This document shows positions 6,201 through 9,200 of a stretch of DNA of 64,000 nt, in pieces. This stretch comes from an uncultured Desulfobacter sp. GTDB taxonomy: Bacteria > Desulfobacterota > Desulfobacteria > Desulfobacterales > Desulfobacteraceae. The notes under the pieces were generated by a model. It was given only the letters and a program-made list of their open reading frames with translations, was not told where the DNA came from and did not search any database. The stretch is from positions 3,712,001 through 3,776,000 of the forward strand of contig OY762069.1 of assembly GCA_963665095.1 (NCBI GenBank). The letters are read 5' to 3'. Position 1 is the first letter of the stretch; each line of letters opens with the position of its first letter. The translations under genes and the position numbers were made by a program.

Positions 6201-9200
6201 AACCGGTACGCGATGTCCCGGCAGACCTCTTGTCAGATGTTGGATTTAAAGCATTTATGCAGGAGAACAACGACCTGGTCCAGGCCGCCCTGAAGCGGGA
6301 ATATGATCTTTTCAGGCAGAAAAAGGCCATGGAAGAGGCGGATAACTTAGGTCTCTACACCGGAGATGTCTGCCTTGCCGGTGTGGCCATCGGCCTTCCA
6401 GGCACCGCCAACCGGGTGTTCAACGAAGACAATTTTGATCAGATCCTGGCCGGCACCAACATGATTGAGCCCCTCACCCAGGAGGAAAAAGCCAAAATTG
6501 TGGACATGAACATCACCCGGGTGTTCAAGGAGCCCAACGGCAATGCCCGGTTTGTGGACATTGTCCGCACCAAGGACGTGATCCAGCTGGCAGGAAAGCT
6601 TGGCTATTTTGACCTGACAGGGGAATACGGCATCAGCCGCAAATTTGACCTGGCAGACGAGCTTGCCATGGCAGCAGGCCTTGAAGCACTGAAAGACGCC
6701 CACATCCCCCTGGTCAAAGGGTATAAAAAGACCTCCACGGGCAGCACGATCCCCAATGGTCTGGTCCTGCCCGAAGAGATGCAGGAGACCACAGGCGTTA
6801 TCATGACAGGGGTTTTCCCGGGCTTAGAGACCCTGCTGCACCAGCTCAACGCCTACTACTACCACAAATTTTACGTCAAACCCTATGATGAGCTGGAAAA
6901 CATCTACTTCCATCTCATGCAGCACCTCACCGACCGGGAGATGAAAGAGGGGATTACCCAGTGGTTCTTTAAAATTTGTGAACGCCGTAAAACCTACGGA
7001 TCATTTAAATTCGAGCGCAATCTGCTCTTTGATATTGTGGCCCTGGGCGGGGCCCACTTTGCCCAGCTCATCCGGGCCAAGGGCCCCAACATCCATCTGA
7101 ACGGGGCGTGCGCCTCCACCACCCAGGCCGTGGGTACGGCCGAGGACTGGATCCGCACCGGACGCTGTGACCGGGTTATCATCATTGGCGGCGAAGGTGC
7201 CACCACTCAAGCCCAGATGCCCTGGGTGGGGTCGGGTTTCCTGGCCATGGGCGCTGCCACCAGCAAAGAGGTGGTGGCCGAAGCGGCCAAACCCTTTGAC
7301 TCGGACCGGGACGGGACTATTCTTGGCTCCGGTGCCGTGGGTCTGGTGGTGGAACGGGCGGACTGTGTTAAACAAAGGGGGCTGAACGGCCAGGCACAGA
7401 TCCTTGGGTCGTTCATCGGTAACAGCGCCTTCCACCCCTCACGCATTGATGTGGACCATCTGGCCGGCCAGCTGCGAAAATTTGTGGCACGAGTGGAGAA
7501 GCGTCATGGCATCAGCCGGTCTGACATCGCTGAAAAAATGGTCTTCATGTCCCATGAAACCTACACGCCTGCCCGGGGCGGCAGTGCATCGGCCGAGGTG
7601 ACCGCATTAAAGCAAGCATTCCCCAATGATTTCGGCCGGATCACCATCACCAACACCAAGGGCTATACCGGCCATACTTTAGGTGCGGGCATTGAAGATG
7701 CCGTCATGGTCAAGGGGTTGCAAAAAGGGATTTTTCCGCCTGTGGCCAACCTGGTCCATGTGCCCGAGGAGTTCAGCGATCTCAACTTTGCAGCCCCTGG
7801 GAACAAAGACTATCAGTTCGGCCTGCACTTCAGTGCCGGATTCGGCTCCCACCACGCGTTTCTGATGGTGCAGCGGCTTGAAGAAAACAAGGTTGAAAAC
7901 AACGAGGTGTACAAGGCATGGCTGGCTAAGATCACCGGCAGTGAAGATCCCATGCTGGCGGTTGTCAATAAAACCCTGTGTGTATTCCCCCGGGACACCA
8001 AACAGCCCCGGGCCAACCGGATTCAGGATACAGACCAGAAAAAAATGGGTGAGGCAGCCGCATCAGGCCATACTGAAGACCTGGCTGCTCAGAGCCGTTC
8101 CGGTGAAACGGCCGCCGCCCCCACACAGAACGGACAGACATCAAAGAAAGATGTCCTGCCCGAAATCACCGCCCTGATTGCCGAACAGACCGGATACACG
8201 GTTGACATGCTGGAGCCGGATCTGGATCTGGAAGCGGACTTAGGCATTGACACGGTCAAGCAGGTGGAAACCTTTGGAAAAATCACAAAGAGCTTTGGCT
8301 TGACGGTTCCCGAGGACATGCAGCTGGCTGAACTGAATACCATCCGCAGAATTGCAGACTATATCAGCAGCCGGATTAAACAGAAAGATACCCAAGGCAA
8401 CCCCACAGCAATCCCGGAATCCGGGGCGTCTGATGCCACAGCCACTTCGGCCATAGACCCGGCCGAGGTAACAGCCAGAATCACGACCCTGATTGCCGAA
8501 CAGACCGGGTACACCGAAGATATGCTGGAACCGGAACTGGATCTGGAGGCAGACCTTGGCATTGACACGGTCAAACAGGTGGAGACCTTTGGCAAAATTA
8601 CCAAGGACTTTGGATTAACGGTTCCCGAGGATCTGGCCATGTCTGAGTTAAACACCATCCAGCGGATTGCCGACTATATTGCCGAAAGCATTGAACCCCT
8701 GGCGGCTCAAAACCCGTCTGCTCCCCAATCTTCCGTTCCCCAACCTTCCGGGGCCATGCCGGAGTCCGGATCAACAGCCGCGCCATCAGGCACCACAGAT
8801 GTGACAAAAAAAATTGTCTCCCTCATAGCCGAGCAGACCGGATACACCGAAGATATGCTGGAACCGGAGCTGGATCTGGAGGCGGATCTTGGCATTGACA
8901 CGGTCAAACAGGTGGAGACCTTTGGCAAAATAACCAAAGCCTTTGGCCTGGAGCTTCCCGAGGATCTTAATCTGGGGGAACTGAGTACCATCCAGAAGAT
9001 CAGTGAGTTTATTTCCGGCCAGTTAGGGGATTCTACAGCCACACGTAGAACATCTTCCGACCAGCCTGTTGAAACACAGACATCACCGGCAACACCCAGT
9101 GAAGGACAGGCAGAAGAGACCCCAGGCGAGAACCCGGAACAAGATAACCAGGACGGCATCCAGGCCTTCAGTTTCGGCCTGCGCAAACTGCCGGAACCAT

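Follow-up and report, generated by a model that had tools for sequence, protein, structure and literature searches.

Threonine at the phosphopantetheine site of Type S/R iterative synthases from bacteria and archaea: a likely carrier residue

Introduction

The iterative synthases closest to the one considered here were described by Shulse & Allen (2011; PMC3098273). In the available part of that paper, Type S is represented by an ER-KS-CLF-AT-KS-ACP3-KR protein with a PPTase in D. autotrophicum HRM2, which may be a core FAS as fabA/fabZ are missing. Type R, a shorter relative of Type S reported for Koribacter, Solibacter, Elusimicrobium and Roseiflexus, displays the order KS-AT-KS/CLF-ACP(3-6)-KR with a PPTase, sometimes with a carboxylase gene in between. 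Neither the breadth of the family nor archaeal members are described in the available text, where 'threonine' and 'serine' do not occur in the main text nor 'threonine' in the supplement text.

Tandem ACPs, an iterative type I design and a dedicated PPTase are likewise found in the PfaA-type PUFA synthases with PfaE (TIGR02813). A likeness to self-contained type I FAS also exists for fungal and mycobacterial FAS I and the enediyne PKSE, and a fused self-loading PPTase is known in fungal FAS and PKSE. These enzymes differ from the synthase presented here in domain order and ancestry, and by their Ser carriers.

In E. coli, the S36T variant of ACP can be neither modified nor acylated and has served as unmodifiable control (PMC3340395, PMC13343975, as far as their accessible text goes), so an ordinary PPTase rejects Thr. 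The same change at the same site, dead in E. coli AcpP, is natural and conserved in the synthases of Type R and Type S.

Results and discussion

Domain organisation of the synthase

The window, i.e. the whole stretch of 64 kb of DNA that was analysed, harbours a synthase with the domain order ER-like, ER, KS1, KS2 (CLF-like), AT, KS3, three ACPs, KR and DH (Table 1), and thus the complete KS, AT, ACP, KR, DH and ER set of a type I fatty-acid synthase. The Type S domain order in one protein, the PPTase gene directly downstream and the orthology with the HRM2 protein were all recovered. The Type S protein of HRM2 (Desulfobacterium autotrophicum, YP_002604438/9; P0175) is 43.9% identical over its full length (3,906 columns), its KS3 is 59% identical to KS3 of the window, and it contains GIDTVKQ three times, as does the window synthase. 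The C-terminal DH of the latter is not listed for HRM2 in the available text of PMC3098273. Named matches at 79-81% KS3 identity were Desulfobacter proteins, so that the window belongs close to this genus.

Table 1. Position of the features identified in the window
Feature	Coordinates	Strand	Observation
Type S/R iterative synthase	203..11737	+	3844 aa, intact frame; Pfam/NCBIfam profile matches
Two FabK/NMO-like flavin enoyl-reductase domains	203..2242	+	Pfam/NCBIfam matches
KS1	2270..3682	+	Cys904, His1040, His1076
KS2, CLF-like	3716..5062	+	Cys kept, first His absent, Tyr at second
Acyltransferase (AT)	5180..6052	+	GHSVG Ser1750, AAFH His1856
KS3, divergent, characteristic of Type R/S family	6350..7882	+	Cys2303, His2451, His2491
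ACP1	8150..8371	+	Thr2684, ACG 8252-8254, at phosphopantetheine site
ACP2	8465..8686	+	Thr2789, ACG 8567-8569
ACP3	8798..9019	+	Thr2900, ACG 8900-8902
Ketoreductase (KR)	9917..10561	+	Tyr3422, Asn3426
PKS-type dehydratase (DH)	10766..11689	+	His3556, Asp3747
Sfp-type phosphopantetheinyl transferase	11751..12467	+	238 aa; SH, GxDxE, WxxKExxxK motifs
Low-molecular-weight phosphatase/arsenate-reductase-type ORF	12805-13389		Downstream of PPTase
Stand-alone H-NOX protein	13693-14226		Downstream of PPTase
RHS-repeat ORFs	42637-57786		In pieces (571, 918, 341 aa)
Exact tandem repeat	44370-49551		Period 1,931 bases, ~2.7 copies, no mismatch; between RHS-repeat ORFs

Type R differs from the window synthase by the absence of the N-terminal ER pair and of KS2, while loci of Type R layout carry DTVKQ as the window ACPs do. 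A KS2 devoid of the His pair was not seen in Type R members, and the Type R domain named CLF in PMC3098273 keeps Cys-His-His and is therefore probably an active KS. The PfaA-type synthases have GIDS at the ACP site where the window synthase has Thr; the latter is moreover one polypeptide with a PKS-type DH, and its score with TIGR02813 (877 bits) is under the cut-off of 1010. No match to the FabA-type DH (PF07977) was obtained in the synthase gene, the matches of the genome being located in other synthases, and the profile search found no thioesterase domain in the 3844-aa protein.

The KS1, KS3, AT and KR motifs had been called intact in an earlier reading made from the sequence only, and the catalytic residues were indeed all found, likewise for DH. 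They are nearly invariant among homologues: the Cys of KS1 was conserved in 203/203 aligned sequences, and for KS3 the Cys in 260/260 and each His in 258/258. The first ER-like domain displays GGR at the position of GGH in the second and is presumably inactive.

Elsewhere in the window, the unit of the tandem repeat consists of a DDE transposase ORF and a 196-aa ORF of no Pfam family, and the repeat represents either an amplification or an assembly artefact. An IS21-type pair (IstB and an integrase-core ORF) lies near the RHS-repeat ORFs. No sign was seen that the H-NOX protein or the phosphatase-type ORF belongs to the synthase unit. One metatranscriptome run, with 13/30 bins covered by short contigs, was rejected as proof of transcription.

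Threonine at the phosphopantetheine site

Each of the three ACPs reads DLEADLGIDTVKQVETF, with GIDTVKQ in 3/3. The sequence-only reading had reported Thr instead of Ser in all of them, and the ACG codons at 8252, 8567 and 8900 were confirmed. Its second statement, that the copies differ at synonymous sites, also stood: 17-23 synonymous codons differ per pair and DNA identity is 73-77%, so that a single read error does not account for the threonines. PF00550 matched the synthase with 87 bits over 3 stretches, and the Thr was aligned with the DS serine of solved ACPs. In an AlphaFold model built with 34 aligned domains (pLDDT 89.8), the ACP fold was obtained with Thr at the start of helix II, and comparison with holo-AntF gave a TM of up to 0.89. 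By profile match and predicted fold the domains are thus ACPs, with Thr (3/3) at the start of helix II in place of the GxDS serine.

As previously stated, the 64-kb window yielded no motif of a Ser-type ACP. Outside of it, the same genome encodes Ser carriers, i.e. a free AcpP and two further small ACPs, as well as a further PKS and a Pfa-type synthase in which GIDSIK occurs two times.

It is extremely unlikely that the threonine is an artefact, a sign of local decay, or a codon read as Ser via recoding or RNA editing. A broken synthase copy is known in genome G019, but no support for such an explanation was found at the window locus. Instead of close homologues with DS and a decaying gene, homologues carrying DT were found and the 3844-aa frame is intact. 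The same residue occurs over many phyla and is encoded by all four ACN codons, and contigs of the public runs X1 and X4 match the first two Thr codons with no differences, although X1 may be the source sample.

Threonine as the family state

A first homologue search, seeded with the ACP region, returned 5,380 proteins, the best 120 of which contained 588 Thr, 5 Ser and 1 other residue. Such a search favours the motif and is therefore biased; no conclusion was rested on it, and a search with KS3 only, which is blind to the ACP residue, was done. Among the best 120 of 2,584 KS3 matches, 333 Thr and 2 Ser were counted, and 118/120 proteins were Thr-only. The best 150 KS3 representatives at 50% identity, including 24 fragments without ACP, gave 337 Thr and 12 Ser, plus 9 residues of other kinds, which all lie in degenerate low-scoring domains; three of these proteins are Ser-only and three are mixed. 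A pooled and redundant set of 384 KS3-bearing proteins yielded 1,208 ACP domains of at least 60 bits, in which Thr occurs 1,196 times and Ser 12 times, to the exclusion of everything else; D, E, Q, G, K, P and A are confined to domains below 60 bits. Thus, the conservation of DT, for which a homologue search had been proposed, was near-universal in the KS3-seeded sets, in which kin are counted although they are not independent. Ser-only members of the family are P0162, P0261 and P0268, and mixed Ser/Thr members are P0026, P0045, P0047, P0085, P0094, P0253 and P0318.

A pattern scan allowing Ser or Thr, applied to 3/64 parts of GTDB, delivered 123 loci, extrapolated to ~3,600 stretches (stretches, not species). 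These loci contain 322 Thr (ACC 153, ACG 133, ACT 19, ACA 17) and 9 Ser, with a few pattern matches and one PPTase pair counted twice because L024/L025 and L090/L091 overlap. Six of the eight Ser loci have another domain layout, the remaining two (L020, L133) being too short for a judgement. According to record titles and source names, synthases with Thr-ACPs occur in Desulfobacterota, Elusimicrobiota, Acidobacteriota, Chloroflexota, Actinomycetota, Myxococcota, Gemmatimonadota, Rhodothermales, Spirochaetota, Bacteroidota families, KSB1 and Thermoplasmatota. The number of ACP copies per synthase ranges from 1 to 8 across Type R/S loci.

A FastTree phylogeny was built from 105 KS3 rows, picked at 68% identity with all non-Thr members retained. 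The 10 Ser-bearing rows require at least six separate changes, all forced by starred branches; in this tree without outgroup, they would correspond to reversions from Thr to Ser. Only a swap that retains the hydroxyl is tolerated. Together, the restriction of intact domains to Thr or Ser and the use of all four Thr codons point to selection on the amino acid and to the requirement for a hydroxyl side chain. Asp and Asn are common helix-cap residues, and since both are absent from intact domains, a purely structural helix-cap role of Thr was rejected.

The PPTase linked to the synthase

The PPTase gene starts 13 bases past the synthase stop, exactly as the sequence-only reading had it, and its product matches Pfam ACPS. 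It is likely the loader of the Thr-ACPs. Of 74 loci reaching the end of the synthase, 12 have a fused PPTase and 28 an adjacent one; in the other 34, none lies within 3-5.7 kb. For 25 of these 34, a giant carboxylase gene comes after the synthase, and in 5/5 such genomes checked by contig and coordinate the PPTase is located just past it. In five Desulfobacterota genomes without adjacent PPTase, an orthologue of the window PPTase is encoded elsewhere (clade support 100/99). The carboxylase is a single chain of >1,700 aa with biotin carboxylase and biotin carrier matched, seen behind the synthase in 24 loci besides L016:3-5210, from Acidobacteriota, Actinomycetota and others.

It had also been suggested that the PPTase might be adapted to Thr, which the comparison did not bear out. 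All 47 linked PPTases retain the Sfp motif positions G, D, W, K, E and K and thus have the usual catalytic set. The linked enzymes do not form one clade, the 47 rows needing 5 changes, 3 of them forced by starred branches. The proposed search for co-varying residues was run, and no residue common to all 47 linked PPTases and absent from others was found. Outside Desulfobacterota, linked PPTases often share the motifs K-[RK]-R-x-x-W and GxDxExxExR. The latter is absent from the clade of the window PPTase, hence there is no universal Thr signature. The tolerance for Thr may reside in the surface of the ACP instead of the PPTase. A weak PPTase match to the alpha chain of fungal FAS was also recorded (E 0.32).

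Archaeal synthases with fused PPTase

One of the loci (L124) belongs to a Thermoplasmatales archaeon by record title. Its class comprises 17 genomes at a completeness filter of 85, and 12 of them match the synthase ACP, always within long frames. All 26 archaeal synthase ACPs of these 12 genomes carry Thr (26/26). No free carrier (PF00550) was detected in any of the 12, and each displays exactly one PPTase match, fused within the synthase frame (in G104, the PPTase-bearing synthase frame is on the second contig). The 11 fused PPTases that were aligned keep the catalytic motifs. In four other genomes of the class both carrier and PPTase are absent. G099 possesses two free PPTases, and its carrier-bearing long frames are of another kind.

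In G100 and G101, the archaeal L1, L10 and P1 genes are found few kb from a cluster of carboxyltransferase, FabI-like and synthase genes, so that these contigs are not misbinned bacterial DNA. The synthases concerned (L150 in G100:C23, L151 in G101:C54) have an extra N-terminal Thr-ACP besides the fused PPTase, and the cluster is a candidate ACP-dependent archaeal fatty-acid synthase. In these archaeal MAGs, Pfam missed the N-terminal ACP in G100 and G101 (one of three real ACPs), and a divergent free ACP could be missed likewise.

These genomes bear on the possibility, raised initially, that the synthase uses an ACP in trans. In archaea the complete fused PPTase has the Thr-ACP as its only detected substrate, which argues against such a carrier; the proposal is thereby weakened for the 12 archaeal genomes, whereas it may still apply in bacteria, where the carriers checked keep a free ACP. 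In its fullest form, it takes the Thr domains for unmodified docking or spacer units, and the PPTase would load a free Ser-type ACP on which the chain is held. The retained bacterial ACPs fit this explanation, as do the dead S36T variant of E. coli and the two genomes (G035, G055) in which the only PPTase is the orthologue of that of the window and would also serve other carriers. It is nevertheless improbable, given the 12 archaeal genomes with fused PPTase and no detected free ACP, the 1,208 intact domains with only Thr or Ser, unlike degenerate copies, and the variable copy number, which is that of working tandem ACPs. A conserved and complete archaeal PPTase with the Thr-ACP as its sole detected substrate is the strongest non-experimental evidence for Thr-linked phosphopantetheine.

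Proposed function of the threonine carriers

From the comparative evidence, phosphopantetheine linked to Thr is the best-supported reading, and the Thr-ACPs quite probably carry 4'-phosphopantetheine on this residue. The neighbouring Sfp-type PPTase would load the prosthetic group on the Thr of the tandem ACPs, which would then function as carriers in a type I fatty-acid synthase. AT would place malonyl on the phosphopantetheine arm, and KS1 and KS3 would perform the condensations, possibly over different chain lengths. Reduction would fall to KR and DH together with the flavin ER (or a neighbouring FabI), and the finished chain may be passed to CoA or to free AcpP.

A different use of the Thr hydroxyl, as a direct acyl O-ester or for another prosthetic group, would also explain why only Ser and Thr are tolerated, and the fact that no adaptation of the PPTase was found agrees with it. 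Such a use is very unlikely, considering that the synthase has a fused or linked PPTase whose catalytic set is complete, with no other substrate detected for it in archaea, and that KS chemistry needs malonyl and acyl thioesters plus a long arm.

Relation to fatty-acid synthesis

The nature of the product is a softer inference, to be kept separate from the Thr-linked phosphopantetheine. In the family of the window organism, FabF and FabZ over the curated cut-off were found in 0/37 genomes, against 19/24 for each in other families of the same order. The ACP revealed the synthase in 35/37 genomes of this family, and the KR-DH end did so in a further one. Since FabF and FabZ are missing there, the synthase is likely the main fatty-acid synthase of the family. 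Across the order, FabF is absent in 37/40 synthase carriers versus 5/21 non-carriers. In the window genome, a stand-alone malonyl transferase (FabD) was not found, and acpP stands alone before rpiB and glyA (names from translations). This genome keeps a FabH-like gene and the Pfa synthase of Ser type, along with clusters whose FabF-like KSs score below cut-off.

A similar situation was encountered in the family of L069, where a single KS match, located in a long frame, was obtained in 17/26 genomes, and Thr-ACPs were present in 6/6 long frames read. In G068, which consists of a single contig, plsX-fabG-acpP is present without fabH, fabD and fabF; behind the synthase come its PPTase and a carboxyltransferase. 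By gene content, FAS II would thus be replaced in both families. Against a core role in all hosts stand the presence of FabF in 29 of 50 carriers that belong to other groups (50 out of 123 loci) and the case of G019 (97% complete, one contig), which has no FabF or FabZ and a broken synthase copy. In the latter (L192, G019:C1:1858000-1870000), the synthase falls into three ORFs, and a transposase-like ORF, so labelled from its translation, interrupts it after ACP1. G019 may rely on its own Pfa synthase or on uptake.

Those two observations, and the Ser-type Pfa synthase of the window genome, would suit an enzyme that has a modified Thr but chiefly makes a specialised lipid or polyketide, with Pfa-type synthases or uptake covering the needs of the membrane. 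Shulse & Allen, in the available text, class such enzymes as secondary lipid synthases. This alternative bears solely on the product and does not conflict with Thr-linked phosphopantetheine. It is considered rather doubtful, because the synthase provides the sole KS match in 17/26 genomes of the family of L069, the loss of FAS II follows its presence in the order of the window organism, and acyl-CoA carboxylase and FabI genes are linked to it. The synthase is likely a portable FAS cassette, predicted to be the main synthase in some lineages and an accessory one in others.

PlsX (TIGR00182) was not found in 61/61 genomes of the order, with or without FAS II, and its absence is thus uninformative on the synthase. 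Two long PF01553 frames of G000 (815 and 885 aa) may be PlsB-like, and a divergent PlsC-like acyltransferase (PF01553; G000:C1:3709359-3710099), ~2 kb upstream of the synthase, might accept its product. The Ser-type Pfa system of this genome is split over two loci (G000:C1:1325142-1334589 and 1694766-1701057), the second of which adjoins OleA/B/C-like ORFs (names from translations).

Novelty and implications

The gene type itself is known, as Type S of PMC3098273, and the carrier chemistry, the breadth of the family and its archaeal members appear undescribed. No description of Thr-linked phosphopantetheine was found in the literature searched, a coverage outside of which most subscription journals lie, and 'threonine' has 0 occurrences in the available text of a 2016 review (PMC4882568). 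We lean slightly towards the full picture of a widespread type I FAS family with O-phosphopantetheinyl-threonine. In Desulfobacteraceae and Elusimicrobiaceae this family would have taken the place of FAS II, and in a group of Thermoplasmatota it would provide a self-loading ACP-dependent FAS without any serine carrier.

Phosphopantetheine on Ser is treated as the rule, to the point that the change from Ser to Thr is used as 'dead' control in E. coli. If true, a natural Thr carrier would represent a new protein modification and would put an end to the practice of regarding DT domains as inactive; it might also offer an orthogonal pair of carrier and PPTase for labelling or pathway engineering. 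For the organisms concerned, the finding points to the making of lipids in common sulfate reducers without FabF, FabZ and FabD, and to an ACP-dependent fatty-acid synthase in archaea.
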